The position numbers and the translations under genes were made by a program. This document shows, in pieces, positions 5,221-36,434 of a stretch of 48,617 bases of DNA (positions within the stretch are counted from its first letter, which is position 1; every line of letters begins with the position of its first letter). The notes under the pieces are model-generated. The model saw only the letters and a program-made list of their open reading frames with translations. It searched no databases and was not told the origin of the DNA. Origin of the DNA: a virus; the IMG/VR virus record IMGVR_UViG_3300019458_000022. One strand, given 5' to 3'.

Positions 5221-6669
5221 TCAGAAGTCCCCCTCCTTTTCCACGAGGTATAGCTCCTCCTTCGCCCGCGTGAAGGACACATACTGCAAGTTGCGCTCCT
5301 GCTGGACCTGCCAGTCCTTCTTCGCGTACGGGAGCGGGGTGAGTTCCGGACGGTAGACGAAGACGCGGTCGGCCTCCAGACCCTTGGCCCGGTGGATGGT
5401 CGAGCAGACGACGCCCTTCTGCTCGTCGGAGAATATCTCCTTGATAAGCGCCTTCAATTCCGGGACCGTCCGTACGCTTTCGGAAAGCACGAAGACGGTC
5501 TCGACCTTGTCGTCCAGGTTGTGCGCCTGGGCTTCTTTCTCCTGTCGATAAAGCCGGTCCATCTCCCGGGTCCGATAGTCGTCGAGCTTCTCCAGGCAGA
5601 TGCCGAGATCATCCGTGTCCATCCGCGTGACCAAGGTCAGGAGGTTCGAGGAGATGTCCTTTCCCCGCAGGATAGCCTTATGCCCCTTCCGGATGAGGGC
5701 GAGGGCGATCTTCGCGAGCGGCGCGTTGATGCGGCAGACGATGAGGTCGCCGTCCGAGACCTGTTCGAGCATCGCCTTCCCCTTGATCACCTCAAGGACG
5801 CCTTCGGGAGCGTCGTCTCTCGGCTCGATCTGGGGTACGATCGAGCGCGCCAGGCGTACATGGCTTCGCGGACAGCGGTAACAGATCGAAAGCGGAAGCT
5901 TTTTGGCGTTCAGTCGCCTGCCGATCCGTTCCATGCTCGTGGTATCGGCCCCGCTGAAGCCGTAGATCGCCTGCCGGGAGTCCCCGATCGCCACCAAGCG
6001 GCTCCGGTTCCCGAGGGCGCGTAGGACCAGTTCGCGTTGCGCCGCATTGAGATCTTGGGCTTCATCGACGCATACCCAGTCGTAGGTCCGGATTGCGAGC
6101 CGTAGCTGGAGCGGCAGCCAGACCATGTCGTCGAAATCGACCGTTTTCGTGTCCTGGAGGTCGAGCGTCAACACCTTGGGGACGGCCTCGACGACCGACG
6201 AGATCCGCTCCTTCTTGATGTCGAGTTCGTAGAAGTCGATGAGGTCCCGGAGGGCCATCTGGTCCCTTGGATCGGTGAGCGTGAGCTTCACGATCGAGCA
6301 GAGCTTCTCGATGTTGTGCCGGAGTTCGATGGTCTCGAAGGCGACGCTGTTGGTGGCCTTGGAGACCAGCCTTGGCATTTTCTTGCGATCGACGGCGCTG
6401 CCGAAGTTCCTGGCGAGCGCCAGGAATCCCAGAGAGTGGATCGTGCGGGCGTCGGCGTTCGCCGGAACGCGCGTCCTAAGCTCGTCGGCGATGTGCTTGT
6501 TGAACGAGCAGAAAAGCACGCGGCCCTTCATGTTCTCCAAGGCGCGGACGAGGGTCGTGGTCTTCCCAGACCCGGCCACGGCCTCGATCGTGGCGTGGCC
6601 GGTTCCGTGGTCACGCCAGTCGAAGATGGCCTTCTGGTAGACGCTTGGTGTCCAGCCGTTTCCGCTCAT
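5221..6669 (-). CDS. UvrD/Rep-like superfamily 1 helicase
   Basis: [54 protein letters not shown]; ATG overlaps the DnaJ stop. Confidence 0.9.
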
Positions 6670-7421
6670 TGGATCTGGATATCGCAATAGAGGTCGCCTG
6701 GCGACGTGCCGTTCGGAAGAGGTTCACCCTGTTCCTTGAGGCGGAGCCGGGTCCCGTTCGTGACGCGCGCAGGAACCGTGATCTCAAGTTGCCGGGAGAC
6801 CTTGACGATGGCCTTTCCCTTGCAATGAGCGCATTTGAAGACGATGGTCTTTCCTCTTCCCCCGCAGTCAGGGCACGACTCCTCGATCCCGATGAAGGTG
6901 ACCGTCCTCATGACGATGCCCTGACCCTTGCAGGACTTGCAGGTCGGCATCTTCGAGCCCGGCATCGAGCCGCTGCCCTTGCAGTAGATGCAGGCTTCGA
7001 GACGATCGACGATCACGCGCTTCATGCAGCCGGAAGCGGCTGCGGACGGGGTCAGGACTAAGTCGATTCGCAGGCTCGGGCCCCGTTTCGGCCGTTTCGC
7101 GTTTCCCGGCCCGAAGATGTTGCCGAAGAGGCCGTTGAGGAGTTCCTCGATCTCCGGGATATCGAAGGGCGATGTGCCGTGGGCCGAGCCATTTTTGGGC
7201 ACGGCGCCGGTCTGGTCATAGAGCCTGCGCTTCTCCGCATCCGAGAGCGCGTCATACGCTTCCGAGATCTCCTTGAACCGTTTTTCGGCCTTCGCGTCGT
7301 TCGGGTTACGGTCCGGGTGGTATTTGAGCGCAAGCTTCCTGTAGGCGGAACGGATCTCGTCCAGGTCCGCATCACGGGCAACCCCAAGCCGCGAGTAGTA
7401 ATCGTCCGTCCCGATGGTCAT
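6666..7421 (-). CDS. dnaJ: DnaJ-class co-chaperone (J domain, Zn-finger repeats, partial C-terminal domain)
   Basis: DYYSRLGV...[14 protein letters not shown] (HPD motif); four CxxCxGxG-type repeats; GDLY. Confidence 0.9.
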
Positions 7422-12251: not shown

Positions 12252-12559
12252 ACGCGCGGTGCCTTGGTGAAATCGACCGCGTGCCCGTGCTGGTCCTGGT
12301 ACTGGGCAGGCGCCTGGATCACCTTCTCGTCGATCATCTTGTTGTAGGTGATCCCGCAGGTCCGGCAGATGTACTGGTCCACGACGAAGACGTGGACGTC
12401 GATCTTCGTCGGCAGGACCACGCATTTCGCGAGATCCGGCACCAGCGGATGGGCGATCTGGTGCCCGGCCTTGAGGAGGAAGGCGTTCGCGCCGTTCTCC
12501 TTGCAGATCGGGCACGGATGGACCGGCTTCGATGCCTTGACGTCGGCGGCTTCGGCCAT
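12248..12559 (-). CDS. Small Zn-binding hypothetical protein
   Basis: CPIC and CRTC pairs; GGAGAG upstream of MAEAAD. Confidence 0.6.
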   Translation of the reverse strand: MAEAADVKASKPVHPCPICKENGANAFLLKAGHQIAHPLVPDLAKCVVLPTKIDVHVFVVDQYICRTCGITYNKMIDEKVIQAPAQYQDQHGHAVDFTKAPRV

Positions 12560-12623
12560 GAGGTTCTCTCCTCTCCGGTAATCGAGTTCGAGTTGACGCC
12601 CTAATGGATGATCGAGCGACGGA

Positions 12624-12929
12624 TCACGCCTCCGCATCCCGAGTCGGTAGAAGCCGGTCGGCAACCCACGCGACGGCCTTCTTCTTGGTCATCCCCTCCT
12701 TCACCGCGAGTCCAATAAAAGTGGTCCGGAGCCGACGCCATCCCTCCGGCCGCGGGTGCTTTCGACCGTTTTCCCAGTCCCGGATCGTGGAGGCGTGGAC
12801 ATTCAGCAGTTCGGCGAACTGATCGCGCTCGAATCCGAAATAGGCGCGCAGCGTCCTGATGCCGGATTGCTTCCGCTTCCTCTTCTTCGGAGTTTCGGCC
12901 GTCGAAGGGGGCGTTCCTGACTCACTCAT
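12624..12929 (-). CDS. XRE-family HTH transcriptional regulator
   Basis: IRTLRAYFGFERDQFAELLNVHASTIRDWENGRKHP; first gene of the left arm. Confidence 0.85.
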   Translation of the reverse strand: MSESGTPPSTAETPKKRKRKQSGIRTLRAYFGFERDQFAELLNVHASTIRDWENGRKHPRPEGWRRLRTTFIGLAVKEGMTKKKAVAWVADRLLPTRDAEA

Positions 12930-12944
12930 AGGTCGTTTCAGCCT

Positions 12945-13155
12945 CTCCAATGAGTCATTGGAGTCAGCATTCTCTCCTAAATCGTCGGCGTCCTCAAGAC
13001 TTTTGCGCCTAACGAATCCAAAAAAACGCGCTCTGACGCCCTTATAACGCTATGAAAAACACCAAGTCCGCATTTTGGAGACTCTACGAAAACACTACAA
13101 GAACACGACGATGCGAGTGTAAAATAGCGCTGTTCTGACTCACACGATGAGTCAG
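12945..13155. promoter_or_regulatory. Divergent promoter/operator region
   Basis: AT-rich gap; palindrome CTCCAATGA-G-TCATTGGAG (12945-12963); leftward TTGAGG-17-GAGAAT; rightward TAAAAT (13120-13125); inverted repeat CTGACTCA-N5-TGAGTCAG (13135-13155). Confidence 0.7.
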
Positions 13156-13175
13156 CGCGAGAGGAGGCGTTTTCT

Positions 13176-15587
13176 ATGGCAGAGGAGAAAATCGGAACCC
13201 TGAACGCCCCGGCTTCCGCAGGAGCAACGGCCGATGCGAGCGACGAGCGCGCCGCGATCGAGGCGGAGCGCAAGGAGATCGAGGCTCTTGAGGCGAAGGT
13301 CCAGACGGATGAGGAGCGCTTCACGCTCAGGAAGCGCCGCGAGGATCTCGGCGAACGGCAGAAGCGCATCCAGAAGCTCGCGGATGCGGAGGAATCCCGC
13401 CGTCAGGAGGAGATCGACGAGAAGAGGCAGCAGGTCGAATCGGACAGGAAGGACAAGGAGAAGCGCCGCCAGGAGGACTCCCTCCGGAAGCAGGCCGAGG
13501 ACGAGGAGAAGGCGTTCGTCGCCGACCTCTGCGCGGTCCTGCCGGACGACGAGCGCAACCAGTTGTCCTGGGCGCTCTTCAAGATCGAACCCGGGAAGGG
13601 CGAAAGCCAGGTCACGAACATCCCGCTCTCGCCCGAACTCAACATCTACGACACCGTGCGGAGCCACTGCCCGGAAGGGGGCGAGTTCCACCTCAAACTC
13701 ATGAAGGGCGGCGTCTTCGCCACCCGGCGCGCGCTGGCTGGAATGGTCCGATCCGACGAGGCCAAGGCCGCGATCCAGGACATGCCCCTCCACTTCAAGG
13801 TCCGCCTTTACGAGAAGGACAAGGACGAATACCCGCGGGAGGGCTACGGGCGCCTCAGACCGGAATGGGGCGGCGTCCGGCGCTACGGCGGCTATGACCG
13901 ACCGCCCGGGGAGTACTACGGCCTGCCCGGATACCGTGGCGGACGGCCGCCCATCACCGCCGAGCACATCGAGCTTCAGCGCGACCGGGAGCGCGAGGAG
14001 CGGGAGGAGCGCAAGGAGATGCGTCAGCAGGTCGCCCAAGAGCGCGCCAAGACCATGGACGATCTCAAGGATGAACGCGACCGGCGGCTCTCCGAGCAGC
14101 GCGAGCACTTCAACCAGCAGATGAACCTGCTGACCACCCTGATCAAGGAAGGACGCACGCCGACCAACCAAGGGGACGCCCTCATCAAGGCGCTCCAGGA
14201 GAACCACACGGGCCAGATGAGCCTCATCCGGGAAAGCTACGACAAGCAGATGACGGCGCTCCAGGATGAGGTCAAGCGCCTTCGGGAAAAGGCCGAAGCG
14301 CCGCCCCCCGCGGACGGGAAGAAGGACGACAGCCTGGCGATGTTCCAGATGATGAAGGAGTCCTCGTCGATCCAGGCGACCGTCCTCAAGGAATCGAACG
14401 AGGCCGCGCGGCGCGCATCCGAAGCACAGGCGAACGCGGCCAAGGATGCCGCGATCGCTCAGGCCCAGGCGATGAAGGAGGCGACCGCGTCCCAGGCCGA
14501 GGCGCTCAAGGCCGCGCTCACGAACCAGGCCGACGTCCAGAAGCAGATCATCTCGATGCAGACCGACAGCATGAAGGAGATGGTCGGGCGGATGATGACC
14601 GACTTCAAGGGCACGATCGAGAACATGCTCAAGCAACAAGAGCGCGACCGGGAAGCCGTGCTCAACGAGCGGAAGGCCGAACGGGAGGCTTCGGAAAAGG
14701 AACGCGAGCGCGAGCGCGAACTCTTCAAGGGCGAGCGCGAGCGCGACCGCGAGATGAACAAGAACATGATCGAACTCTGGCGCGAGCAGGCCACGAAGAA
14801 GGGCGGCTCCGAGCAGATGCTCGACCAGGTCATGAAGATGGCCTCGACGGTGATGACGACGACCGGGAAGTCGATCGAGGCCCAGCTTGCCGTGGCGTCG
14901 AAGGTGAACAAGATGGTCCGGAAGATGGACCGCGAGGACGAGGATGAGGAGGAGGAGGACGAGGACAAGAAGAAGTCGGACTTCGACAAGATCCTGGACG
15001 TCGTCCAGCCTCCGCTCATGAAGGTGCTCGACATCGCGCTGGAGCAGGCCCGGCAGGGAAAGCCGACCGACCAGATTCACGCGGAGGCCGAGAAGCTCCT
15101 CCAGGAGCAGATGAGAAACCAAGCCGAGGAGCATCGTAGGCGCGGGGCGGGTGAAGCCGAGGAGCCTGCCGGGGGTACCGCCAGGCGCAAGGAAACGAAA
15201 CAGGAAGACGAAGGAGGAGGAGACATGCTGGAGTCGATGCTGGAGGAGTACCGGGACGATGTCATCCCCGTGATCGTCGCCGCGATCGAGAAGAACGCGG
15301 ACGAGGACTGGCTCACGGGGATGGTCATGTCGCCGGACTTCCCGCCCGCGGCCAGGACCGGGCTGGCGCTTCTCCCGATCAAGAAGGTGATGGAGAAGCT
15401 CATCAAGTTCGCGACCGACGAGGAGAAGGCGGTCCTCAACGCGAACGGCGCCGTGGACTACTTGGTCCGAATCCAGAACCGGATGATCGAGGTCCAGAAG
15501 AAGCTGAAGGAGGCGGAGCGCGAGATGGAGGCCCAGGAGGCGGCTAAGCCCGCGGCGGCTCCTGCGGCGAAACCCGCGGGGCAATAA
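13176..15587 (+). CDS. Large charged coiled-coil protein, function unknown
   Basis: 803 aa, E/K/R/Q/M-rich helical composition, GGAGG RBS. Confidence 0.8.
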   Translation: MAEEKIGTLNAPASAGATADASDERAAIEAERKEIEALEAKVQTDEERFTLRKRREDLGERQKRIQKLADAEESRRQEEIDEKRQQVESDRKDKEKRRQEDSLRKQAEDEEKAFVADLCAVLPDDERNQLSWALFKIEPGKGESQVTNIPLSPELNIYDTVRSHCPEGGEFHLKLMKGGVFATRRALAGMVRSDEAKAAIQDMPLHFKVRLYEKDKDEYPREGYGRLRPEWGGVRRYGGYDRPPGEYYGLPGYRGGRPPITAEHIELQRDREREEREERKEMRQQVAQERAKTMDDLKDERDRRLSEQREHFNQQMNLLTTLIKEGRTPTNQGDALIKALQENHTGQMSLIRESYDKQMTALQDEVKRLREKAEAPPPADGKKDDSLAMFQMMKESSSIQATVLKESNEAARRASEAQANAAKDAAIAQAQAMKEATASQAEALKAALTNQADVQKQIISMQTDSMKEMVGRMMTDFKGTIENMLKQQERDREAVLNERKAEREASEKERERERELFKGERERDREMNKNMIELWREQATKKGGSEQMLDQVMKMASTVMTTTGKSIEAQLAVASKVNKMVRKMDREDEDEEEEDEDKKKSDFDKILDVVQPPLMKVLDIALEQARQGKPTDQIHAEAEKLLQEQMRNQAEEHRRRGAGEAEEPAGGTARRKETKQEDEGGGDMLESMLEEYRDDVIPVIVAAIEKNADEDWLTGMVMSPDFPPAARTGLALLPIKKVMEKLIKFATDEEKAVLNANGAVDYLVRIQNRMIEVQKKLKEAEREMEAQEAAKPAAAPAAKPAGQ

Positions 15588-15597: not shown

Positions 15598-15627
15598 TTG
15601 ACGGACGTTCGGAATCGCCCGTATAAT
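15598..15627 (+). promoter_or_regulatory. Sigma70-like promoter
   Basis: TTGACG-18 nt-TATAAT. Confidence 0.75.
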
Positions 15628-15704
15628 CCTTTCCGACGAGCGAGTCAGTCCGGAAAGGGCTGGCTCGGCCTGGAAGAGGAGGCCGACGAAAGGACGAGTT
15701 CTTG

Positions 15705-16445
15705 ATGTATATCGACGGCCACCCTCGCGGGCCTCGACGGGATCGCGGGCATTCCCGACACGATCTGGAAGACCATCTCGGATTCTATGGAGGAGGCGCG
15801 GGAGGACTGGGCGATCTCTCGGAAGAGGCATACGGTCGGCCTCCTTATCCCGAGATGGGATACGTGGCCGCGGCGACCGACGCGAAGGGGACGCTCTTCA
15901 ACATCGAGGACTCCGACCGCGGCACGGAAGCGACCGTCGAGAAGATGGCGGAATTGGTCAAGAAGGGGTCGTTCGATCCCTTCGTGATCAAGAACGCCAT
16001 GCGGATCGTCCGCGCCGCTGGAGTTCCCCGGAAGGCTTACCTCAAGGAGATCGAGGCGCTCTTCAGGTACGCGCAGGGAACCCATCCGACGCTTCCCGGC
16101 CTCCGCTACTTCAAGGACACCTGGCACGCGGAGAAGCTCCAGAGCGCGCGGCGCACCGAGGAATTCGGGGGCTCTGATTGTGACGACCTCGTCATTCATC
16201 TCGGTGCCCATCTACTGAGCATAGGGCATGGGCCGATACGCCTGGTGGTGGTCGCCGCAGATCCTCAGCGTCCGGACGAATACTCCCATGTGTACATGTG
16301 GGTCGCTCACCCCGAAGGAAACGCGGTCGATCCAGAAGACGGCTCGCGCTGGATTCCGCTCGACCCGACCGTTGGAAAGCCGATGGGCTGGGAAGTCGAG
16401 AACCCGTTCCGGAAAGCGTACTTCCAGGTGAGCCGTGCCGACTAA
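15705..16445 (+). CDS. Transglutaminase-like (papain-fold) cysteine enzyme, putative maturation protease
   Basis: Catalytic triad motifs GSDCDDL, SHVY, WIPLDPT; begins MYIDG. Confidence 0.75.
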   Translation: MYIDGHPRGPRRDRGHSRHDLEDHLGFYGGGAGGLGDLSEEAYGRPPYPEMGYVAAATDAKGTLFNIEDSDRGTEATVEKMAELVKKGSFDPFVIKNAMRIVRAAGVPRKAYLKEIEALFRYAQGTHPTLPGLRYFKDTWHAEKLQSARRTEEFGGSDCDDLVIHLGAHLLSIGHGPIRLVVVAADPQRPDEYSHVYMWVAHPEGNAVDPEDGSRWIPLDPTVGKPMGWEVENPFRKAYFQVSRAD

Positions 16446-16974
16446 GGCCGCACTCGTCGAGATCGAGGAGGTTCCTTTTGGAATCCGAAAAACCCTGGAG
16501 CAGATGGAAAAGCTTTCAATCCGCGGCGCGCGAGATCCATTCGTCATCATGAACGCGATGAGGCTCGTGAACGCGCTCGGCATCCCCAGGAAGGCTTACC
16601 TCAAGGAGATCGAGGCGCTGCTCCAGTACGCGCAGGGAATCCATCCGGAGTTCGGGGGGCTGCGATACGCGCGCGACCCTCGCGAGGTCATGGAGTCGCC
16701 GCGGATGACCGAGGAGTACGGTCACGGCGACGCCTCGGATCTCGCCGTCTGGCTCGCGGCCCATCTCCTGGCGATCGGGCATGGGCCGGTACGGTTCGTC
16801 GCGATCTCCGCCAAGGATCGTCCGGACGATTTCGTTCACGTCTATCTGCACTACGGGAACCCGGAAGGAAAGCGATTCCGATGGATCGCGCTCGATCCGA
16901 CCGTCGAGGAGCCGATGGGCTGGGAATACCCGGACGCGGCGAAGAAGGTCTACTACGACGTGGGGAAACAGTGA
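16435..16974 (+). CDS. Transglutaminase-like paralogue lacking the catalytic Cys
   Basis: Aligns with the previous gene (DPFVI.NAMR, PRKAYLKEIEAL, HVY, WIALDPT) but has GDASDL in place of SDCDDL. Confidence 0.75.
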   Translation: MPTKAALVEIEEVPFGIRKTLEQMEKLSIRGARDPFVIMNAMRLVNALGIPRKAYLKEIEALLQYAQGIHPEFGGLRYARDPREVMESPRMTEEYGHGDASDLAVWLAAHLLAIGHGPVRFVAISAKDRPDDFVHVYLHYGNPEGKRFRWIALDPTVEEPMGWEYPDAAKKVYYDVGKQ

Positions 16975-17396
16975 TGGGCTTGAGCGGTCGTCAGATCCTG
17001 GCCGGGGTCGGCCTCGTCGGAGCGCTCGCCGGAATCGGCGTTCTCGCAGTCATCAACCGGAAGCGGAGTGACCGGGAGCGCGCGGAGATGGACGGTCTTG
17101 GTCTCGACGCGAAAGGCAGGCGCGCGTACGCCAAGCACGAGGAAGTGAACTGGGGCCGGAAACCCGGCCGCATGATCGTAGTCCGCGAGGGACGTCGCAA
17201 GCGCGACCAGAAGTACCTGGTCGAGATCGGCAACCTGGAGGCGGTCGTCTACCGTTCGCCGAAATCCGGCAACGAGGAGAAGTACCTCCACTTCTTCGAT
17301 TCTCCGAACCCGGTGCTCGCGACGGATTCCAAGGGCAAGCGCCTTTTCATCGTCGGCGGAAAGGCCCAGGTGGACGAGCGGGGAATCGTCGGCTGA
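16974..17396 (+). CDS. Membrane-anchored putative virion protein
   Basis: ATG overlaps the upstream stop; N-terminal hydrophobic helix, MDGLG, then a beta-rich domain. Confidence 0.7.
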   Translation: MGLSGRQILAGVGLVGALAGIGVLAVINRKRSDRERAEMDGLGLDAKGRRAYAKHEEVNWGRKPGRMIVVREGRRKRDQKYLVEIGNLEAVVYRSPKSGNEEKYLHFFDSPNPVLATDSKGKRLFIVGGKAQVDERGIVG

Positions 17397-17407: not shown

Positions 17408-17447
17408 TTGACGTCGAGGTTGGACTCACACTATAATCATGTGAGTC
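17408..17447 (+). promoter_or_regulatory. Sigma70-like promoter with overlapping operator
   Basis: TTGACG-18 nt-TATAAT; the -10 box is flanked by the inverted repeat GACTCACA...TGTGAGTC. Confidence 0.75.
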
Positions 17448-19956: not shown

Positions 19957-20565
19957 ATGCCGCGTCTGACAGGTAAGCGCGAGATCGTCACGGGCTGGAT
20001 CTACGACGCCGCGACGCTCGGTGTCTCCGGGCTCTCCGGCCGTGGATTCCAGATCCCCAACCCGGTGGATACCTGGGATGCGTTCCAGCAGCCCAAGGGC
20101 CAGGCGGGGAAGACCTTCACCCAGACGAACGTCGAGGCGGGCTCCGGGTTCCTCCCGGGCGTCAAGTCGTTCGTCATCAAGTCGGAGGTCTTCAAGGTCG
20201 AGGATTGCAGGCTCTCGGACGACGTCTGCAAGATCATCGACGGCGGCAACGCGACGCTCAAGATCTCGGAGAAGTCGTACCCCTCTCCGATGCCGATCTG
20301 GCTCTTCTCCGGCGGGACGGGCCTCTTCGACAACGTCCGCAGCGCCGCCGCCGCGGCCGGGGACATCCGGGCGACGGTCGGGCCGGGCAACATCGCCAAC
20401 GTGCTGAAGTTGCACCGGGCTCTGCCGGTTCCCATCAACACGCTGGAACCCTTCGTCTTCGAGTTCCGGTGGCAGCCCGCCATCACGATCGGGCCGCAGC
20501 CGACCGAGGACGGCATCCAGGTGTGGGTGGTGCTGTACGGCTTCCTGAAGCGTCAGGTGGCGTAA
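19957..20565 (+). CDS. Candidate major capsid protein (single jelly-roll-like)
   Basis: 202 aa beta-strand pattern (WIYD...QTNV..GSGFLP...FVI...VWVVLYG); very strong RBS GGAGGTGAT; followed by a GC hairpin; directly after the core-protein gene. The fold is inferred. Confidence 0.5.
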   Translation: MPRLTGKREIVTGWIYDAATLGVSGLSGRGFQIPNPVDTWDAFQQPKGQAGKTFTQTNVEAGSGFLPGVKSFVIKSEVFKVEDCRLSDDVCKIIDGGNATLKISEKSYPSPMPIWLFSGGTGLFDNVRSAAAAAGDIRATVGPGNIANVLKLHRALPVPINTLEPFVFEFRWQPAITIGPQPTEDGIQVWVVLYGFLKRQVA

Positions 20566-20605
20566 GCCGCCCGGCTGCGGAAGGAACCGCACTGGTCGAG
20601 TACAA

Positions 20606-20660
20606 GGGGGAGGGCGCGGCCTCCGCGCCCTCCCCCCGCTGTACCTTCCAGGTTTTTTTG
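20606..20660 (+). terminator. GC-rich hairpin after the capsid candidate
   Basis: GGGGAGGGCGCGG-cct-CCGCGCCCTCCCC, with a T-run about 15 nt downstream. Confidence 0.5.
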
Positions 20661-20721
20661 GCCCTCGGCCTTGTAGAGCCTGCCGAGCGGATGAAGGGGT
20701 GGCTCCCCGGAGGACTTTTTT

Positions 20722-21303
20722 GTGCCGAACGAAACGCGCGAAGAAGACCTGGACGTCAGGGCGCTTCTTCGGAAGATCAACAAGAACCAGAACGCGCTTC
20801 ACTCCCGGCTCACGTCGATCGAGCAGCGGGTTTACAAGTACACCGACGACGTCGGCGAGGTCTCGAAGCGCGGACAGGGGATCTTCGAAGACGTCTTCAA
20901 GGTGATCCTCACGGTCGAGTTCACCGAGGCGCTCCAGGTCCAGAGCGACCAGTTCATCACCGCCAGCGACTTCCATTTTGATTACCTGAAGGTCGCGGGC
21001 TTTCCCGAGCAGTTCAGGTCGCGGGTGAATATCCGGTTCAAGGACATCTCCAGCGACGTGGAACTCGTGGGGCGCCGCGATTTTATGCCGCTCGACACGT
21101 TCGCGGGCACGGGAGAACTTCCGTTCGCGGAAGTCGCGCCCCGGCGCTTCGTCGCCCGCGGCGGCATCCTCATGGACTTCCAGGACAACGGGACCATCGA
21201 CGGGGTGACGCCCTCGAACCCGGGCGACTTCCCGTACCGGATCACGATCACGATCCATGGTCTCAAGGTCTTCCTCCAGAGGGTCGAGCGGCAGGGACAG
21301 TAA
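20722..21303 (+). CDS. Putative structural protein (N-terminal helix plus beta-sandwich)
   Basis: 193 aa, GGAGG plus GTG start, alternating beta pattern. Confidence 0.6.
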   Translation: MPNETREEDLDVRALLRKINKNQNALHSRLTSIEQRVYKYTDDVGEVSKRGQGIFEDVFKVILTVEFTEALQVQSDQFITASDFHFDYLKVAGFPEQFRSRVNIRFKDISSDVELVGRRDFMPLDTFAGTGELPFAEVAPRRFVARGGILMDFQDNGTIDGVTPSNPGDFPYRITITIHGLKVFLQRVERQGQ

Positions 21304-21311
21304 GCCCTGCC

Positions 21312-21947
21312 ATGATCGTGAGACGACCGTTCCGCTTCGCGGCAAGCGAAGTGGAGAAGAACCAGAGGTCACACTACGTCCTGAACGACCTCCCCCTGGA
21401 GCACCAGGTCCGCGGAAACGACATCGTCAACACGGTGATCCGCCGGAAGGAGATCGGATTCCGGACTGTCGCCTATCCCGGCGGCGTCATGAAGTACGAG
21501 GAGGCGATCGTCGGCAAGATCCCGGACGAGCACCGGGTCCATCCGGAGGGCCTGGAATCCTACTACCTGCCCGAGATCGTCGCGCCGCCGGACTTCTCCC
21601 AGCCGCTCATCCTGTCGGACACGTTCACGATCCCAGCCTTGGCGTCGAACTTCGTCACGATCGACTTCACGGTGCCGATCGCGCGCGAGGCCGCGATCAA
21701 GACCGCTTTCTTCGAGGTCGCCGACGCCTCGATCGACACGATCAGCTTCAACATCGTCTACGGCGGCATGAAGAGCGAGTTCGCGGTCAATGTCGAGGTC
21801 TCGCCCCTCGAATCCTGGCAGGCGAACATGCGCCTGGACGAGCAGATGCGGGTCGCCGTGCTCGTCACGAACGCGCTCGCGGGCATCCGTTCGGTCCGGG
21901 TGGCGCTGAACGGCTGGATCTACCCGGTCCATAAGAGGGTGGTGTAG
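21312..21947 (+). CDS. Putative beta-rich structural protein
   Basis: 211 aa; C-terminal beta pattern ending VRVALNGWIY, similar to the end of the 19957 protein. Confidence 0.6.
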   Translation: MIVRRPFRFAASEVEKNQRSHYVLNDLPLEHQVRGNDIVNTVIRRKEIGFRTVAYPGGVMKYEEAIVGKIPDEHRVHPEGLESYYLPEIVAPPDFSQPLILSDTFTIPALASNFVTIDFTVPIAREAAIKTAFFEVADASIDTISFNIVYGGMKSEFAVNVEVSPLESWQANMRLDEQMRVAVLVTNALAGIRSVRVALNGWIYPVHKRVV

Positions 21948-21949
21948 CG

Positions 21950-22585
21950 ATGGTCGATACGCTCACCATCTTCTCGAAGCGCGTCAAGGTCCCGGCCAAG
22001 GGCGTCGTATCGAGCAATTTCTGGGTCTCGATCGGCTTCGGCTCGATCCGGGGGATCGCCAACGCCGACAAGGTCGGCCCCGAAAGCCTGGTCCGGATCA
22101 TCCAGGGAATCAATCCGGAGAAGCGGGACCGCCAGCGGGCCATCAAGCTCTTCGATCCGAACTGCGACATCAAGCTCATCGAGCCCGTGTGCTCGCAGCT
22201 TGTGCGCGTGGACTACGAGAACGACCTGGACGAAGAGGTCAACCTTTCGCTCGACGTCGCGCTCTCGAAGCGGCGCGTCGAGCGGGACGAGGTCAAGTAC
22301 CGGGACTTCTTCAACGAGACGCGCACCGTGCTCGCGGGATCGACGTTCGCGCAGAACGAGGTCAACATCCAGGAAGCCCTGGGACGGTCGGTGACGTCGC
22401 TCCACATCCAGCTTCCGACGTCCACGGACCTCGTCAACCTAAAGATCAACGACGAGGGCACGAACCTTTTCGAGGTCATCGGGGAACGTCGCTTCACGCC
22501 CGAGGCCGACCAGTTGGAAATCTGCCGGGTCTTCATCGAGAACCCGGGCGCGGGCAACCTCGACGTGAGAATCTTCGCGACCTGA
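21950..22585 (+). CDS. Putative beta-rich structural protein
   Basis: 211 aa, tight operon spacing. Confidence 0.6.
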   Translation: MVDTLTIFSKRVKVPAKGVVSSNFWVSIGFGSIRGIANADKVGPESLVRIIQGINPEKRDRQRAIKLFDPNCDIKLIEPVCSQLVRVDYENDLDEEVNLSLDVALSKRRVERDEVKYRDFFNETRTVLAGSTFAQNEVNIQEALGRSVTSLHIQLPTSTDLVNLKINDEGTNLFEVIGERRFTPEADQLEICRVFIENPGAGNLDVRIFAT

Positions 22586-24560: not shown

Positions 24561-24923
24561 ATGTACATCAACGAGATCGGCGATCCGAAGCGCAGGAGGC
24601 GGGTGCCTCCTTCATGGGCCGCCGCCAAGGGCTTGAGGCGGAAGTTAAGCGGGCCCGTGGAAGAGGAGGCTCCGCCGGTCGAGGATGTCGTGGCTACCGG
24701 CCCGAAGGACGTCGAGCTTCCCGGGCCCAAGATCGAGCAGTTGCGCCCGACGCGGGCGTACGAAGAGCTTCCGGCGATCCCCGAGTTCGAGTTCGGAGGC
24801 GAAATGGTCCTCCCGGAGGACGTCGAAAAGGTCGCCGAACTTTCGGAGTTCGGCGAGTACCACGCCCAGGACCCGATCGCTCTGCGATCCCTGGAGAACG
24901 CGATCATCAATGGACTTCTCTGA
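24561..24923 (+). CDS. MY-start hypothetical virion protein
   Basis: MYINEIG; C-terminus resembles that of the previous gene. Confidence 0.7.
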   Translation: MYINEIGDPKRRRRVPPSWAAAKGLRRKLSGPVEEEAPPVEDVVATGPKDVELPGPKIEQLRPTRAYEELPAIPEFEFGGEMVLPEDVEKVAELSEFGEYHAQDPIALRSLENAIINGLL

Positions 24924-25774
24924 TGTACGTCAGCGCAATGGAAACGTTCGAGCACGGAGCGCTCGCGGGTGTCACGAGCATCGTGGCGCCCGATGGGCGC
25001 CAGCTTGGAGCAAGCCTCGGGAAGAAGGTGCGGAAGACGGTCAAGCGCGCAGGGAGAGGCGTCAAGCGGATCGCGAAGACGAAAGCCTTCCAGTACGCGA
25101 TGGCGCCCTTCACGGCCGGGATGTCGATCGCATCCGTCCGGAAGGGCGCGAAGAAGGCGCTCGTCAAGTACGGACCGTACGTCGCGATCGCCGCGCAAGC
25201 GCTCAACCTTGTCGTTCCCGGACTGGGAGTGGCGGTGGGCGCGGCGATCGCCGCGGGCTCAACCGCGTTGCAGGCAAAAGAGGCCAAGAAACAGGTGAAG
25301 GAGGCGGAGAAGCAGGCTCTTTCAGCGCAGGCGGCCGAAACCCAGGCGATGGCCGACGAGCAAATGAATAGCGCGTACACGACTGGAGAGAAGTACTTCA
25401 CGGAAAAGTACGGCATGAGCCGGGACAAGTGGACCGCGCTTCCGTACGACGACAAGCTCAAGTTCGTCCAGAACGTCGTCTACGACCAGAACCAGGAACA
25501 GATGGCGGCGGAAGGGGTCACGCGGGAGCAGTTCATGGCGATGCCCGTTGAGGAACAAAACAGCATTGTCGCGGCCCTGGGCGAAACCGAGTTCAAGGAG
25601 CTTAGCTCGGGCGAGCGAAGGAAATTGACCGCCGAACTCGCGTCGGCGGTCGGGGAGCCCGTGCCCGAGGAAGGACTCCTCGGGCTTCCGCTCTGGGCGT
25701 GGCTCGCCATCGGAGGAACCGTCGTTGTCGGGATTCCGGTGGTAGTCATGTTGGCGCGTAGGAAGGCGGCATAG
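24923..25774 (+). CDS. MY-start membrane protein
   Basis: MYVSA; ATG overlaps the upstream stop; internal hydrophobic hairpin and C-terminal TM followed by RRK. Confidence 0.7.
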   Translation: MYVSAMETFEHGALAGVTSIVAPDGRQLGASLGKKVRKTVKRAGRGVKRIAKTKAFQYAMAPFTAGMSIASVRKGAKKALVKYGPYVAIAAQALNLVVPGLGVAVGAAIAAGSTALQAKEAKKQVKEAEKQALSAQAAETQAMADEQMNSAYTTGEKYFTEKYGMSRDKWTALPYDDKLKFVQNVVYDQNQEQMAAEGVTREQFMAMPVEEQNSIVAALGETEFKELSSGERRKLTAELASAVGEPVPEEGLLGLPLWAWLAIGGTVVVGIPVVVMLARRKAA

Positions 25775-25777
25775 CGC

Positions 25778-26035
25778 ATGTACCTCGGATACCAGCCCTA
25801 TACGGTCGCGGGCGCGATGAAGCCCTCGATCCGCCTCAAGGCCATGGCCGGGCTTGGCGAAGTCCCGGTGGTCGTGGTCAAGGACGAGGCCGCGACCGCA
25901 AGTTTCGGGCAGAAGATCACGAGCATGCTTCCCTTCGCAGTCGCGATGGTCGGGGTTTCCGTCGTTTCGAGCCTTGCGGTGTACGCGATCACGAAGCTCA
26001 TCGAGGGGAAAAAAGGCAGGCCGGAGCGCAGGTAG
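25778..26035 (+). CDS. MY-start small membrane protein
   Basis: MYLG...MAGLGE; C-terminal TM and basic tail. Confidence 0.7.
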   Translation: MYLGYQPYTVAGAMKPSIRLKAMAGLGEVPVVVVKDEAATASFGQKITSMLPFAVAMVGVSVVSSLAVYAITKLIEGKKGRPERR

Positions 26036-26056
26036 AGGAATTCTCGGAGGCCGAAC

Positions 26057-26425
26057 ATGTACATGGGCGTTGTCGAGCGGAGCATCGGGTACCTTTCGAA
26101 CGGCCACTCCGTTCTCACCCAGAAGGTGACGCCGGAGCAAGCGGAGAAGCTCTCCAAGGAGAGCCCCTCGGTCTGGGACAAGATCGTGGAGAACCTCCCG
26201 ACCGTGGTCGCCAAGGGCTACGAGACCTATCTCAAGCTTCGTGGCGAAGGAAAGCCCGCGAAGATCCCACCGCCTGTGAGCGTCCCGGTCTCGGCCTTCG
26301 CGCCGACGCCGACCCCCACGACGCCGGGCTGGGTGCTTCCGGTCACGCTCGGGGTACTCGGTCTGGGCGCTCTCGGGACCGTGGTCTATCTCGCGACTCG
26401 CAAGGGGAACAACAAGAAGAAGTAG
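26057..26425 (+). CDS. MY-start small membrane protein
   Basis: MYMG; Pro/Thr linker; C-terminal TM followed by RK...KKK. Confidence 0.7.
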   Translation: MYMGVVERSIGYLSNGHSVLTQKVTPEQAEKLSKESPSVWDKIVENLPTVVAKGYETYLKLRGEGKPAKIPPPVSVPVSAFAPTPTPTTPGWVLPVTLGVLGLGALGTVVYLATRKGNNKKK

Positions 26426-26427
26426 CC

Positions 26428-26832
26428 ATGTACGTTTCGGCCATCGAAAAACGCCGTGGCGCCGGGATGGACGGCAGCTTCTACCTCGCCCAGGGCGAGG
26501 AAGAGGAGTTGAAGTCCCTGGAAAAGGCCGCGGCTGGAACGAAGGAAGCCGAGAAGAAGGAAAAGGAGCCTGAGAAACCGGCGTGGCAGAAGGCGGTCGA
26601 AGCCGGAGCGACGGCAGCGGCGGCGATTGCGACAACGGCGATCACGAAGGGCCGGAAGATCGAGCCGGTTCCGCCAGGGGATGAAGAGACCGCGGCTGCG
26701 AGAAGGTTCGCGGCCGGGGAAGGGCTACCCGAGAAGACGTTCATGCAGAAATACGGAGTGATGATCGGAGTCGGCGCTGCCGCGATCGGCGTGCCGACCC
26801 TGCTCTATTTTCTCCTGAGGAAGCCTGCGTAG
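26428..26832 (+). CDS. MY-start small membrane protein
   Basis: MYVSA; C-terminal KYG-TM-RK. Confidence 0.7.
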   Translation: MYVSAIEKRRGAGMDGSFYLAQGEEEELKSLEKAAAGTKEAEKKEKEPEKPAWQKAVEAGATAAAAIATTAITKGRKIEPVPPGDEETAAARRFAAGEGLPEKTFMQKYGVMIGVGAAAIGVPTLLYFLLRKPA

Positions 26833-26834
26833 CC

Positions 26835-27173
26835 ATGTACATGAACGGAAGCGGCATCGGCCAGTGGGCGGACATCATTTCCGCGGTCGTTCCGGCTCTC
26901 GCCAAGGTCGGGACGTCGGTCTACGGGGCGAAAGTTACGAAAGACATCATCAAGAAGCAGGAAAAATCGGCGATCCAGCAGGCCCAGCTTGCGCTCAAGG
27001 CCCAGCAGGCGGCTCTGGCGGCCCAAATGGCACAGGAAAAGCGGGCGGCCGACGCCGAGAAGAGCTTCTTCGAGAAGTACGGCCTCTACATCGGGATCGG
27101 CGTGGCCGCGGTCGGGATTCCGGTCGCGGTTCTTCTGGCGATGCCGAAGGCGAAGGAAAAGAAGTCGAAATGA
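26835..27173 (+). CDS. MY-start small membrane protein
   Basis: MYMNGSGIGQ; C-terminal KYG-TM-basic tail. Confidence 0.7.
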   Translation: MYMNGSGIGQWADIISAVVPALAKVGTSVYGAKVTKDIIKKQEKSAIQQAQLALKAQQAALAAQMAQEKRAADAEKSFFEKYGLYIGIGVAAVGIPVAVLLAMPKAKEKKSK

Positions 27174-28024
27174 GCCGGTACATCGGAGCCGAGGACAAGG
27201 TGCTGACCGAGGACGACGACGACGTCGAGAAGGTCGAAGGCGAGGTGCTGTTCGAGGCACAGACGCCCTACCAGAAGATCTGCCTCTTCGTCGAGCGGAA
27301 CGGCTCGGTCTCGCTCACCCTCGACAAGTACTGGCAGTTCTACGGGCCCGAGGAGCACATCTACCACGAATCGCTCATGACGGTCCCGATGCTCATCGCC
27401 AAGCGGATCAAGGACGTCGTCATCCTGGGAGGCGGCGACGGGCTCGCCGTCCGGGAGGCGCTCCGGTTCCAGGAACTCCGGAAAGTATGCCTCGTCGAAC
27501 TGGACCCCTCGATGATCCGGATGGCCCGGGAGCACCCCGTCATGCGGTCGCTCAACCGGGACGCTCTCCAGAACAAGAGGGCGGAAGTCTACGCGATGGA
27601 CGCGCAGCGTTTCCTCAAGGACAACCGGAAGTGTTTCGACGTCATCGTCTGCGACTTCCCGGACCCCACGAGCCCGGTGATCGCGCAGCTTTTCTCGAAA
27701 GCCTTCTACCGGGAGGTCGCCGGACACCTCGCTCCCGGAGGCGTGGTGTCCGTCCAGGGGTCGAGCCCGTCGAGCGAACTCGATTTCGTGACCACCTACG
27801 TCAATCTCGCGTCGGTGTTCCCCTATGTCCGGCCGTACGCGCCGGTCATGCCGACCATGGGAATGGCCGGGATGTTCGTCGCGTCGGATGCGCCGATCAA
27901 GATGCGCCGGGGTTTCCCTGAAGGGCTCAGGTTCCTGAACAAGAAGACCATGGACGACATGTTCGATCGCGGGTCGGCGATCGGGAAGGCGCTTTTGTCC
28001 AAGTACGACGCCCTTTTGGCTTAG
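27170..28024 (+). CDS. speE: Spermidine synthase / polyamine aminopropyltransferase
   Basis: QTPYQKI, EHIYHESL, VILGGGDG, VELDP, DAQRF, FDVIVCDFPDP, LFSKAFY, LAPGG. Confidence 0.9.
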   Translation: MSRYIGAEDKVLTEDDDDVEKVEGEVLFEAQTPYQKICLFVERNGSVSLTLDKYWQFYGPEEHIYHESLMTVPMLIAKRIKDVVILGGGDGLAVREALRFQELRKVCLVELDPSMIRMAREHPVMRSLNRDALQNKRAEVYAMDAQRFLKDNRKCFDVIVCDFPDPTSPVIAQLFSKAFYREVAGHLAPGGVVSVQGSSPSSELDFVTTYVNLASVFPYVRPYAPVMPTMGMAGMFVASDAPIKMRRGFPEGLRFLNKKTMDDMFDRGSAIGKALLSKYDALLA

Positions 28025-28033
28025 AGGTCTCTC

Positions 28034-28363
28034 GTGTACATCAGCGACGTCGAAAAGCGCGCCAAGGGACGGCTGCTCCAGCAGCGGGACGGAAAGCCCG
28101 CCAAGCGCATCCCGAGGTCCGCCGTGCGGAAGGCGCTGGAGAACGCGATCCTGGCGCTCGACCGCGTCATGAACGACCTCGACGTCGTCGTCGAGGACTT
28201 CTGGACCGACGAGGACGGGAAGCCGCTCACGAAGGGGCTTCCGGCCAAGAACCACTCGATCGACGCGGCCGACCAGCTTTATCTCGCGAAGAACAAGCTC
28301 TATCGGGCGATCCGGCTCCTGGAGAACGCGGGCCGGGGAAACGTCGCGGAGGAGGCGCACTAA
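28034..28363 (+). CDS. MY-start helical hypothetical protein
   Basis: GTG start after GAGG, (M)YISD. Confidence 0.65.
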   Translation: MYISDVEKRAKGRLLQQRDGKPAKRIPRSAVRKALENAILALDRVMNDLDVVVEDFWTDEDGKPLTKGLPAKNHSIDAADQLYLAKNKLYRAIRLLENAGRGNVAEEAH

Positions 28364-29019
28364 TGTACCTCTCCGGCACGAATTCGAGCCTGGCGCAGGC
28401 GGTGCTGAAGGAGATCCCGCCGGGTCTCCTCAAGAAGACCGCCGAGGACGAGGCCCGGAAATACAACGAGGCCAAGTACAAGGACGCCTACTTCCGCAAG
28501 CGCGTGGCCGAACTCATGAAGCTCCATGACGACGTGCTCGCGGACGTGAAGAAGTACGAGGAGAAGGCCCGCGAGATCGGGGACGAGAACTTGAGGCTGA
28601 AGGCTCTCAAGGAGATCTCGAAGGCCGTACACCGGCTGTCCCTCATGAAGCGGCTGCTCTCGGAAATGAAGCCGGGGGCGAACGCTTCCGTGAACGGCAT
28701 CCATGGTCTTGGAAACGCCGGATTCTGGGCGACGCTCGCCCAAAACCCGGCGACCGTGTTCGTGGCCCCCATCGGATTCGCCATCGCCATCGGTCTCGGA
28801 GCCGCGCTCATCTCCGGACTGGAGCACATCAAGGAGATCATTCCGGCCGTGAGCACCGCGCTTAAAATCGCGGTCGCGGTCGTCGGGGTTTCCGCCGGAG
28901 TTCTCGGCGTCATCTGGATGGCACGGATCATCCGCGACATCTGGGAGGCCGACAAGAAAGAGAAGAAGGTCGAAGCGGAAAGGCCCAGGACGCCGATCGT
29001 GTCGCCCAGGACGCCATAA
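28363..29019 (+). CDS. MY-start coiled-coil protein with two TM segments
   Basis: MYLSG; IHGLG precedes two TMs; ends ARIIRDIWE. Confidence 0.7.
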   Translation: MYLSGTNSSLAQAVLKEIPPGLLKKTAEDEARKYNEAKYKDAYFRKRVAELMKLHDDVLADVKKYEEKAREIGDENLRLKALKEISKAVHRLSLMKRLLSEMKPGANASVNGIHGLGNAGFWATLAQNPATVFVAPIGFAIAIGLGAALISGLEHIKEIIPAVSTALKIAVAVVGVSAGVLGVIWMARIIRDIWEADKKEKKVEAERPRTPIVSPRTP

Positions 29020-29040
29020 GAGACTTTCCGGAGGAAGACC

Positions 29041-29634
29041 ATGTACGCGAACGTCGGAAACGTGGCCATGATGGGAGCGCTCGGTCAGACGGGCGAGGAG
29101 ATCCACGCCCGCGCGGCCAGGCTCATCAAGGAGTACGAGACGCTTCTCGATACGGCCAAGCGCATCAAGAGCGACGAGGCCGTGAAGGAACTCGTCGGCC
29201 GCTTCGGGATCGGGCGACCCAAGGACGAGCGGACGCCTGACTACTACTACGTGAACGTGAAGAGCTACTACGACCGGGCGGTCGCGGCCGTGCCGACGAA
29301 CTACGCGATCTGGAAAGCCGGATCGCGGCCGATCAACCGTGTCGAGGGCCTCTCCGACGCCATCAAGGATCTGGAGCCCCGGGTCAAGGACGCGGCGTCG
29401 CGTTTCGGCCTGATGCCCGGAGTCCCTCCCAAGGAGATCATCCGGGAAGAGAAGGTGATCGAGAGGTTCATCGAGCAGGAGTTCCTGGGGCTCCCGGTCA
29501 AGACCTGGCTCTACATCTCGGGGGGCGTCGCCGCGACCGGCGTCCTTGTCGGAATCATCATCGCGGCGACGAAGTCGGCTCCCGCGGGACGGAGGAAGGC
29601 GGCGATGGGCGGGATGGGACGGATGGGGCATTGA
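29041..29634 (+). CDS. MY-start membrane protein
   Basis: MYANV...MGALGQ; C-terminal TM. Confidence 0.7.
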   Translation: MYANVGNVAMMGALGQTGEEIHARAARLIKEYETLLDTAKRIKSDEAVKELVGRFGIGRPKDERTPDYYYVNVKSYYDRAVAAVPTNYAIWKAGSRPINRVEGLSDAIKDLEPRVKDAASRFGLMPGVPPKEIIREEKVIERFIEQEFLGLPVKTWLYISGGVAATGVLVGIIIAATKSAPAGRRKAAMGGMGRMGH

Positions 29635-29708
29635 AGCGCGATCAACCCTAGCCGGAGGCAGGGAGGATTTCACCCACATATATAGAAAAGGTGAAAGGAG
29701 CTTGACAG

Positions 29709-30104
29709 ATGGGCACGAGGAACACGCTTCACTTCATCGACCCGAGCGCGCTGCCGTTCATCGTGAACATCCCCTTCACGGGGCTCACGAGCGCGGCGGA
29801 CATCACGGTCGATTCGGGGGTCATCAACCCGGATCGGGACTTCTACGGCTTCGTCATCCGGTCCTCGGGAAACGGAAAGTTCTCGTTCAAGCTCACGGAC
29901 GGCGACGGGCAGGATCTCTCCTCCGCTTTCATCGACGGGATCGACGTCATGGGCGAGGAGATCGTCAGGAATCTCGGCGAATCGGGGCGGCTCGTCCCGA
30001 TCTTCGCTCCCAAGGGGTCGAAGATCACGGTCGTGCTCCACAAGGACGACGCTGGGACCGTGGACGGGACCATCGAAGTCCGGGGGGTGACGATCGAGGG
30101 CTAA
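29709..30104 (+). CDS. Small beta-rich putative structural protein
   Basis: 131 aa, AAGGAG RBS. Confidence 0.7.
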   Translation: MGTRNTLHFIDPSALPFIVNIPFTGLTSAADITVDSGVINPDRDFYGFVIRSSGNGKFSFKLTDGDGQDLSSAFIDGIDVMGEEIVRNLGESGRLVPIFAPKGSKITVVLHKDDAGTVDGTIEVRGVTIEG

Positions 30105-30256
30105 CATGAACTTCGTGCGCGTAGAGGGCGCTCTGGCCTCGCGGCTCGATCCGCGGGCGGACGAGGCGGTCGCCCTTGTTTTTGGGGCGATAGAGCGCCC
30201 CCTAAGAGGACGATGAACGGTCGGATATAGGAGCCTGATTTTTTAGGAGGTCGTCC

Positions 30257-30655
30257 ATGGCAGGGTTCGCAACGACGTTGGTGGCCACGGTGACGGGACC
30301 GGGCCCGCTCACCTTCACGGCCATCAGTTCCGAGGGAGCGGTCATCGCGACCGGCCTCACGGAATTCGTCTTCCCCGACAACGGGAAGCGGTTCCAGGTC
30401 CAGGTCGTCGATGGGTCGAACAGCAGCGGCGCCTTCCAGTACCGTCTGATGTACAAGGGGAACGGCGGCACCGTGAAGCTGATCGACGTGGTCTCCGCGG
30501 CGGCGGGCGAGGTTCTGAAGAGCTTCGCCGTCGAGAGTCCGCTCCTCGAAGTGCTGGGCGACGGCACCCGGTCGATCTCCGCGGAAGCGATCATCGCGAT
30601 CGGCGCCCCCGCGGACGGCTGTCTCGTGGTGATCGTCGTCCAGCGCGAGACGTAG
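30257..30655 (+). CDS. Beta-rich structural protein, tandem paralogue 1
   Basis: MAGF...GLTEFVFP...GCLVVIVVQRET. Confidence 0.8.
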   Translation: MAGFATTLVATVTGPGPLTFTAISSEGAVIATGLTEFVFPDNGKRFQVQVVDGSNSSGAFQYRLMYKGNGGTVKLIDVVSAAAGEVLKSFAVESPLLEVLGDGTRSISAEAIIAIGAPADGCLVVIVVQRET

Positions 30656-30730
30656 CCGGGGGTTCCGAACCTGGAGAGTTAGACACGGGGCCTGGAGAAC
30701 GGCTCAAGGACTGCCGAAGGAAGGTGCGAC

Positions 30731-31123: not shown

Positions 31124-31200
31124 GCGGAGGTTCGCAACAGATGGGCTAGGCATGGAGCCTGGCCGGAAGTTTTACGCGGATTGTTGAAGGAGGATGCAGC

Positions 31201-31599: not shown

Positions 31600-31693
31600 A
31601 CCGACGATCCTTCCGCATGTCTGCCTCCGGCCCGTCGTGGGCCGGAGGCGGGCTGCGGTGAGGCTCGCGGCGTAGTGAAAGGACAGTCTGCCT

Positions 31694-32254: not shown

Positions 32255-32256
32255 CC

Positions 32257-33795: not shown

Positions 33796-33804
33796 GGACG
33801 AGCT

Positions 33805-34566: not shown

Positions 34567-34575
34567 GAGACGGGA

Positions 34576-35022: not shown

Positions 35023-35034
35023 ATCGGAGGCGGC

Positions 35035-35916: not shown

Positions 35917-35917
35917 C

Positions 35918-36418: not shown

Positions 36419-36434
36419 GAATAGGGGAGACGCC

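Follow-up and report, generated by a model that had tools for sequence, protein, structure and literature searches.

A viral transglutaminase-fold protein encoded together with a conserved sister that lacks the catalytic cysteine

The virus record IMGVR_UViG_3300019458_000022, analysed here as a stretch of 48.6 kb (the window) out of a 168,645-bp contig, carries three overlapping plus-strand genes, here called A, B and C, of which the first two are paralogues of the transglutaminase-like superfamily. A is likely a thiol enzyme with the full Cys-His-Asp triad; B, judged from its residues, is a member of the superfamily by fold and not as an enzyme. Together, they very probably constitute an enzyme plus pseudoenzyme pair. 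Dead members of this fold are already known, and what is new here is that the likely enzyme is small and viral and that its dead twin is conserved and co-translated with it; full-text searches of the literature found neither a transglutaminase-like enzyme/pseudoenzyme pair nor a phage virion role for such a protein. The features of the three genes are as follows (aa, amino acids; nt, nucleotides).

15705..16445, plus strand: gene A, ATG 15705 to TAA 16445, 246 aa, likely transglutaminase-fold enzyme with Cys159-His195-Asp220 intact
15705..15884, plus strand: leader of A (residues 1-60), MYIDG start, disordered, Arg/His/Gly-rich, with hydrophobic-Gly motifs (HLG, GGLG, EMG)
16179..16181, plus strand: nucleophile codon Cys159 (TGT) of A; Cys is found in this column in 152/161 family members
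16435..16974, plus strand: gene B, GTG 16435 to TGA 16974, 179 aa, leaderless paralogue, predicted pseudoenzyme
16732..16734, plus strand: Ala100 codon (GCC) of B at the nucleophile position, all three bases differing from TGT
16974..17396, plus strand: gene C, 140 aa, ATG overlapping the TGA of B by 1 nt

An earlier note on this DNA had described two adjacent paralogues, and the two open reading frames are indeed 50% identical across 185 residues (BLASTP, expectation value (E) 9e-62), with B matching A only from residue 60 of A onward, that is, A without its first 60 residues. The three motifs that the note had read in A (DCDD, HVY and LDPT) are present in the translation as D158-C159-D160-D161, H195-V-Y and L219-D220-P-T, and the triad is encoded by TGT at 16179-16181 (Cys159), CAT at 16287-16289 (His195) and GAC at 16362-16364 (Asp220). 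The equivalent motifs of B are D99-A100-S101-D102, H135-V-Y and L153-D154-P-T, so that, just as the note had it, the second copy has DASD and keeps its His (His135) and Asp (Asp154); Ala100 stands in place of the Cys, Ser101 in place of the Asp, and the whole protein contains no Cys.

Among 161 family proteins, the nucleophile column holds Cys in 152, Ala in 8 and Val in 1, and the His and Asp of the triad are found in 160 and 155, respectively. The Cys-less exceptions are B, its exact database copy P0003, the orthologues P0004-P0006 and P0011, the stand-alone proteins P0012 and P0013, and the long-branch outlier P0123; within the B-type proteins, the column is Ala in P0002, P0004-P0006, P0011 and P0013 and Val in P0012. 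The Cys is replaced in every B-type sequence, these coming from independent assemblies, and the Asp that follows the nucleophile position is likewise gone in all B-type proteins (S, T, G or A). An alternative nucleophile in B is unlikely, as B is free of Cys and the residue after the Ala, Ser in B, varies in this way among relatives, while a fused A-B gene or a frameshift artefact is ruled out by the separate frames and the stop/start overlap, which are the same in all relatives. Lone Cys-less members lie at 6439-6984 of locus L004 and on the 3.5-kb Logan contig of P0012, both of which are phage-like; L004 also encodes a DNA polymerase III beta clamp and two N6/N4 methyltransferases.

Both A and B belong to the transglutaminase-like superfamily (Peptidase_CA clan) by descent and fold. 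The link of the two proteins to PF01841 is transitive, since neither sequence has a direct Pfam match at E up to 1 and their profile relatives do. A profile of A, B and five close relatives retrieved 2226 proteins (E up to 0.001) from 1.84 billion representatives; when 58 of these relatives were sampled, 50 matched PF01841 Transglut_core (best E 8.9e-16), 17 matched DUF553 and 10 the CEP76 peptidase-like family, with PF06035 (LapG family) being matched by only 2/58 (E 0.0014). The family signature is G-D-C-D-D ... S-H-V-Y ... L-D-[AP]-T ... G-W-E. No PHROG match was found for A, B or the 66 family members scanned, and searches of PDB sequences by phmmer and with a small profile returned chance-level matches only. 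A wider family profile, when compared to PDB sequences, matched 3ISR (E 3e-5) and LapG (E 1.5e-4). The Cys of DCDD aligns with the catalytic Cys of LapG (GAGDCEDYAI) and of 3ISR, and the His and Asp align with those of 3ISR.

AlphaFold2 models made with the family alignments are confident for both single chains, with a mean predicted local distance difference test (pLDDT) score of 84.5 for A, in which residues 1-60 are disordered, and of 94.5 for B (predicted template modelling score 0.90). By Foldseek, the model of A resembles LapG, the putative Cytophaga cysteine protease 3ISR, Rad4/XPC, PeiP, TG3 and PNGase, all at probability 1.00, and also CPR-C4. By VIA-align, the top match of the B model is 3KD4 (Z 13.3), followed by TG3, factor XIII, TG2, LapG and PNGase (Z 10-11), and the matches at Z 10-13 span 131-160 residues; the model also resembles the inactive protein 4.2 and XPC at Z 9.2-9.7 (9.2-9.4 for protein 4.2). 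A shape search of B in the ESM Atlas yielded a template modelling score of 0.81 to a cluster that is 100% PF01841, as well as four all-viral clusters. Profile relatives, AlphaFold models with their transglutaminase/papain-like cores, and the Foldseek, VIA-align and Atlas matches agree on the transglutaminase-like fold that the earlier note had assigned to both proteins, and the Cys-His-Asp triad that it had named in A is in register with those of known enzymes (C159/H195/D220).

The A-B-C order recurs in four other loci from three further lineages, and the neighbours on both sides of the three genes are conserved in all four.

L001 and L002: A 258 aa, B 188 aa, C 137 aa
L010: A 246 aa, B 183 aa, C 137 aa
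L003 (341-kb contig): A 237 aa, B 178 aa, C 138 aa

In our tree, which comes from a quick maximum-likelihood search only, the A clade and the B clade unite as one clade (Shimodaira-Hasegawa-like approximate likelihood ratio test support of 97), and the Cys-less proteins form one sub-clade (support of 90). This topology points to a single duplication inside the viral lineage, with the Cys having been lost once. The ratio of nonsynonymous to synonymous substitution rates (dN/dS, Nei-Gojobori) is 0.06-0.26 for A and 0.11-0.39 for B, these being rough values as dS is saturated, and dN to the same relatives is 0.27 for B versus 0.19 for A, such that B evolves somewhat faster. When five A-type proteins are compared with five B-type proteins, fixed differences occupy four alignment columns, one of which is the Cys to Ala change. 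Because B is kept with A in four other loci, has a low dN/dS and shows few fixed differences from A, it is maintained rather than decaying, and the "dead copy" of the earlier note is intact beside A in L001, L002, L003 and L010. By these sequence comparisons, B is a pseudoenzyme that has been conserved with the rest of its cleft intact, and both decay and an artefact can be set aside as explanations.

The A/B overlap is 11 nt and the B/C overlap 1 nt, and the three genes lie between two promoter-like sites, an arrangement that marks them as one translationally coupled unit. For a physical complex of A and B, this coupling is at most suggestive. The TTGACG/TATAAT promoter that the earlier note had given the pair as its own is present upstream of A.

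15598..15627, plus strand: sigma-70-type promoter-like site upstream of gene A, TTGACG-18 nt-TATAAT, 11/12 consensus positions
15642..15647, plus strand: GAGTCA motif just 3' of the -10 hexamer, operator candidate
17408..17437, plus strand: next promoter-like site, TTGACG-18-TATAAT, downstream boundary of A-B-C

Two such sites occur in an 8-kb stretch, compared to 0.6 in shuffles. The corresponding site in relatives reads TTGACG ... TAGAAT in L002, has TATAAT with a poor -35 in L010, and has TTGACG with a poor -10 in L003. GAGTC/GACTC is also found 3' of the -10 in L002 (5119-5190), L010 (2305-2370) and L003, and it flanks the -10 of the site at 17408-17437; these motifs may be operators for a viral regulator.

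Near the N-terminus of the C protein lies a single hydrophobic helix (~residues 8-27) with NRKRSDRER behind it, and given this basic stretch, the soluble part of C, as read from its sequence, should face the cytoplasm. Its orthologues, of 137-138 aa, directly follow B in L001, L002, L003 and L010. No family or fold was found for C, the Atlas search giving no usable match and the Atlas model having a pLDDT of 0.36.

The leader is confined to A. As the earlier note had observed, only the putatively active copy has an MY leader with GGLG: A starts with MY and has GGLG at residues 33-36, and the match of B to A begins at residue 60. In the AlphaFold2 model, pLDDT falls below 50 at residues 1-35 and 54-58, and by sequence inspection, neither A nor B has a hydrophobic signal peptide at its N-terminus. 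The leader contains acidic runs followed by hydrophobic-Gly motifs (EEAYG, GGLG, EMG), with SGFG, AGLG and SGIG being carried by the leaders of orthologues. The MY start is also present in the A proteins of L001/L002, P0008 and L003, where the hydrophobic-Gly motifs recur and the remaining leader sequence is variable; gene A of L010 was called with a later start, and from its DNA, it could begin at TTG-GCG-TAC (M-A-Y). The leaders of the A orthologues in L001/L002 (residues ~10-35) and L003 (~17-30) additionally contain a Cys/His-rich stretch (C-P-L-H-G-D-Y-C ... C-P) that may form a small metal-binding knuckle, and the A protein of the window has a His/Arg-rich stretch at this place.

The start of A is shared with other genes of the plus strand. 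M-Y-(I/L/V/M/A) begins 19 of the 45 plus-strand genes, often followed by x-G or G, and 0 of the 14 minus-strand genes (binomial p ~1e-18, given that Tyr makes up 2.7% of residues). Of these genes, 18 lie within 24.5-41.3 kb (24561-41279), A being the sole one outside; the start is usually ATGTAC and is lacking in B and C. In L003, another gene besides A starts with MY. No shared DNA motif was found upstream of the MY starts beyond ordinary ribosome-binding sites, and hence the MY start is more likely a protein-level signature than a DNA-level signal. It might serve as a leader or a targeting tag, or mark the N-terminus for processing.

A second recurrent element is E[EQ][EQ]F[LM]G, mostly with Pro before it, which appears in 9 copies in 5 otherwise unrelated proteins and in coding frames only. 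The genes that bear it start at 17833, 23289, 29041, 33805 and 39639.

18724, 18883, 19717, 19753, 23733, 23766, 29473, 34333 and 39720, plus strand: copies of E[EQ][EQ]F[LM]G in the window
L003 14892 and 14919; L010 5316, 6225 and 6261: copies of E[EQ][EQ]F[LM]G in relatives

The chance expectation of the motif is ~0.01, a rough figure from residue frequencies, and six of the nine copies lie in internal repeats. In gene 39639, the motif closes a 35-residue MY leader. It is kept at the C-terminal tail of the orthologous Arg-rich protein in L003 and L010; unrelated phage loci lack it. Being spread over unrelated proteins, E[EQ][EQ]F[LM]G is a candidate site for cleavage or docking.

The window comes from a large, uncultivated bacterial virus, or from a virus-like element, whose lineage is undescribed, as evidenced by its phage-type replication genes, its bacterial-type signals and the lack of relatives in phage genomes, IMG/VR and species genomes. 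Specifically, tblastn found no relatives of A among 50,697 deposited phage genomes, none were found in IMG/VR, and a scan of GTDB species genomes also found none; a scan of Joint Genome Institute metagenomes contributed nothing beyond two loci that were known before and three distant fragments. The minus-strand arm (1-12.9 kb) encodes an SNF2 helicase, a UvrD-type helicase, a Cas4-like nuclease, a DnaC-like loader and a replication initiator. The plus-strand arm, from 13.2 kb, has almost no family matches, the exceptions being collagen-like fibres, LamG, a spermidine synthase and a glycosyltransferase fusion. Promoters and ribosome-binding sites are of the bacterial type. The A-B-C unit sits at the beginning of the plus-strand arm, adjoining the replication/early arm, and the window showed no HK97-type capsid, portal or terminase.

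Several neighbours are shared with the relatives. Upstream of the operon, at 13176-15587 on the plus strand, lies the gene of an 803-aa Glu/Lys/Arg-rich, coiled-coil-like protein, which has no family match and is 748-806 aa long in all relatives; L001, L002 and L010 have two extra genes (108-110 and 225-231 aa) between this gene and A. Four consecutive genes of ~200 aa at 19957-22585 on the plus strand are kept in all relatives without a family match. In an Atlas search, the first of them matched unnamed viral clusters, with PRD1 P2/P3-like capsid clusters reaching only chance level (0.76-0.78). L003 has extra genes at 12323-13159, between C and the gene of the Arg-rich protein, one of them for a patatin-like phospholipase, and the window is without these. 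Distant family members are encoded on phage contigs, within structural blocks near tail, tape-measure or tail-lysin-like genes, and many family members have an N-terminal hydrophobic segment.

We put forward a functional reading of the unit tentatively, regarding its chances as just short of even when all of its parts are taken together: A would act on the virus's own late proteins, with B as its partner and C as a tether. In this proposal, A would form an acyl-enzyme on these proteins and most probably cleave them, the candidate sites being hydrophobic-Gly motifs, namely PEE[EQ]F[LM]G, the starts of the MY-leader proteins and the leader of A itself. B, made in step with A, would accompany it stoichiometrically as a non-catalytic partner, having kept the ability to bind the same peptide or A itself, with a possible role as adaptor, activator or timing brake. 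C may tether the A-B pair to the membrane. A more specific version is doubtful in our estimation: A-B-C would be the maturation machine of an undescribed lineage of huge bacterial viruses (168-341 kb) whose structural genes are unlike known phage families, and A, as a cysteine protease steered by B, would remove M-Y-hydrophobic-x-Gly leaders and cut PEE[EQ]F[LM]G in core and membrane proteins. The earlier note had seen the dead copy as a substrate adaptor, inhibitor or structural subunit for virion maturation, and the genomic context fits such a role circumstantially, through the MY start that A has in common with the clustered plus-strand genes, the PEE[EQ]F[LM]G motif of neighbouring proteins, the hydrophobic-Gly motifs in the leader of A and the structural surroundings of distant family members. 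No other protease-like protein was found among the ~40 window proteins scanned.

Several observations weigh against this proposal. The fold is compatible with several chemistries, being common to peptidases, cross-linkers, deamidases and glycanases. B-type proteins occur without an adjacent A in L004 (15.7 kb) and on the 3.5-kb contig, both of which are partial contigs, and no second family copy was found in the 15.7 kb of L004 by tblastn. These stand-alone genes suggest that B may work alone, and an obligate A-B complex remains a proposal. A near-consensus sigma-70 promoter is commoner for early than for late phage genes. The excess of [AG]LG in MY leaders (6/19 versus 1/40, p 0.003) is a post hoc count. 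Finally, another protease may lie in the remainder of the contig of at least 168 kb.

Among the alternatives, it is unlikely that A is a true transglutaminase that makes Gln-Lys isopeptide cross-links in virion or core proteins with B as a substrate-holding partner, and the same low likelihood attaches to one example of such chemistry, in which the Gln of PEEQF[LM]G would be joined to the Lys-rich AAKKGWR repeats of the Arg-rich 651-aa protein. The fold and triad are those of TG2, TG3 and factor XIII, the acyl-enzyme chemistry is identical to that of proteolysis, Gln is found in 6/9 copies of the motif, and Lys-rich repeats are present in the neighbouring 651-aa protein. However, Glu, which cannot be an acyl donor, takes the place of this Gln in 3/9 window copies and in every C-terminal copy of L003 and L010, and the characterised small prokaryotic members of the superfamily (LapG, PeiP/PeiW, CPR-C4) are hydrolases.

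Distinctly unlikely is the possibility that A is a peptidoglycan cross-link endopeptidase, either carried in the virion for entry or used for lysis, with C holin- or anchor-like and B a regulator. PeiP and PeiW of archaeal phages, transglutaminase-fold enzymes that cut pseudomurein isopeptide bonds, are among the fold matches, and the tail-proximal setting of distant family members, the hydrophobic segments at many of their N-termini and the transmembrane protein C, which the operon layout suggests is co-transcribed, all fit such a role. Nevertheless, A has no signal peptide, no signal-arrest-release segment and no wall-binding domain, and its leader is charged and disordered; the basic stretch of C, as read from its sequence, places the soluble part of this protein in the cytoplasm; and a dead twin is without known precedent in lysis cassettes.

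We consider it very unlikely that the pair is directed at host proteins for takeover or counter-defence, with A as a protease or deamidase and B as a decoy, an immunity-like inhibitor or a substrate trap, although papain-like and transglutaminase-like deamidase/protease effectors are known (PMC10318531), the near-consensus host-type promoter suits early expression and the operon adjoins the replication/early arm. The MY N-terminus of A is common to the clustered plus-strand genes and to no minus-strand early gene, and in all relatives, the unit has stayed syntenic with the gene of the Arg-rich protein and the four ~200-aa genes. Scarcely credible is the view that B is a functionless duplicate heading for loss, or an assembly or sequencing artefact, for despite its missing nucleophile and a dN above that of A (0.27 versus 0.19), it is intact in five loci from independent samples, has a dN/dS of 0.11-0.39 with invariant His and Asp, differs from A in only four fixed columns, required three base changes for Cys to become Ala, and is coupled to its neighbours on both sides.

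If the proposal that A processes leader-bearing late proteins is correct, the unit would represent a new virion maturation system and provide a handle on a lineage with unrecognised capsid genes; in its more specific form, it would add a new class to the viral maturation proteases and give virion assembly its first enzyme/pseudoenzyme pair. More broadly, transglutaminase-fold proteins are abundant in phage and bacterial metagenomes, as seen in the 2226 relatives and the several all-viral Atlas clusters, and their viral roles are almost all unassigned. The pair also offers a natural experiment, as B differs from A essentially by its nucleophile, has long been kept and would be carried on the same message.

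When compared to known systems, A is closest to the bacterial transglutaminase-like cysteine proteases, namely LapG (PDB 4FGO, 4U65) and the putative protease 3ISR, which share its fold and the order Cys-His-Asp, and the GDCED of LapG resembles the GDCDD of A (common stretch G-x-G-D-C-[DE]-D). LapG is a site-specific endopeptidase with a functionally important Ca2+ bound beside the active site (PMC4359373). By analogy, the acidic residues near the nucleophile suggest that A may also depend on Ca2+; the acidic residue after the nucleophile position is present in A and gone in B. In contrast to LapG, which is periplasmic, secreted and controlled by LapD, A is viral and without a signal peptide, and it has a disordered leader and a dead twin. 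The matches to PeiP/PeiW are weak (Foldseek E 3e-3, VIA-align Z 9.3, profile E 0.67), and no pseudomurein-binding repeat domain was found in A or B. With no signal peptide, no binding repeats and weak matches, A and B fall outside the LapG family and probably outside the PeiW family.

Virus-coded trimming at a short repeated motif, as carried out by the adenovirus protease, the HK97-type prohead proteases and T4 gp21, provides a working analogy for the proposed action of A. The adenovirus protease cleaves at (M/L/I)xGG-x or (M/L/I)xGx-G. These enzymes have folds unlike that of A, the adenovirus protease having the order His-Glu-Cys and the prohead proteases being Ser enzymes, and we know of no transglutaminase-fold maturation protease.

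For B, the closest parallels are EPB42 (protein 4.2), Rad4/XPC and FBXO21, which have kept the fold, lost the active site and been put to binding or scaffold use, as B may have been. In protein 4.2, Ala replaces the catalytic Cys, the same substitution as in B. Both EPB42 and FBXO21 are catalytically inactive (PMC10318531). Unlike B, which keeps its His and Asp, these three are large eukaryotic multidomain proteins with no co-translated active sister adjoining them. Pairs of active and inactive paralogues are represented by Rpn11-Rpn8, BRCC36-Abraxas and caspase-8-cFLIP, in which the dead member positions, activates or restrains the live one; their folds are other than that of A and B, and they serve as a working analogy only for how B might act on A.

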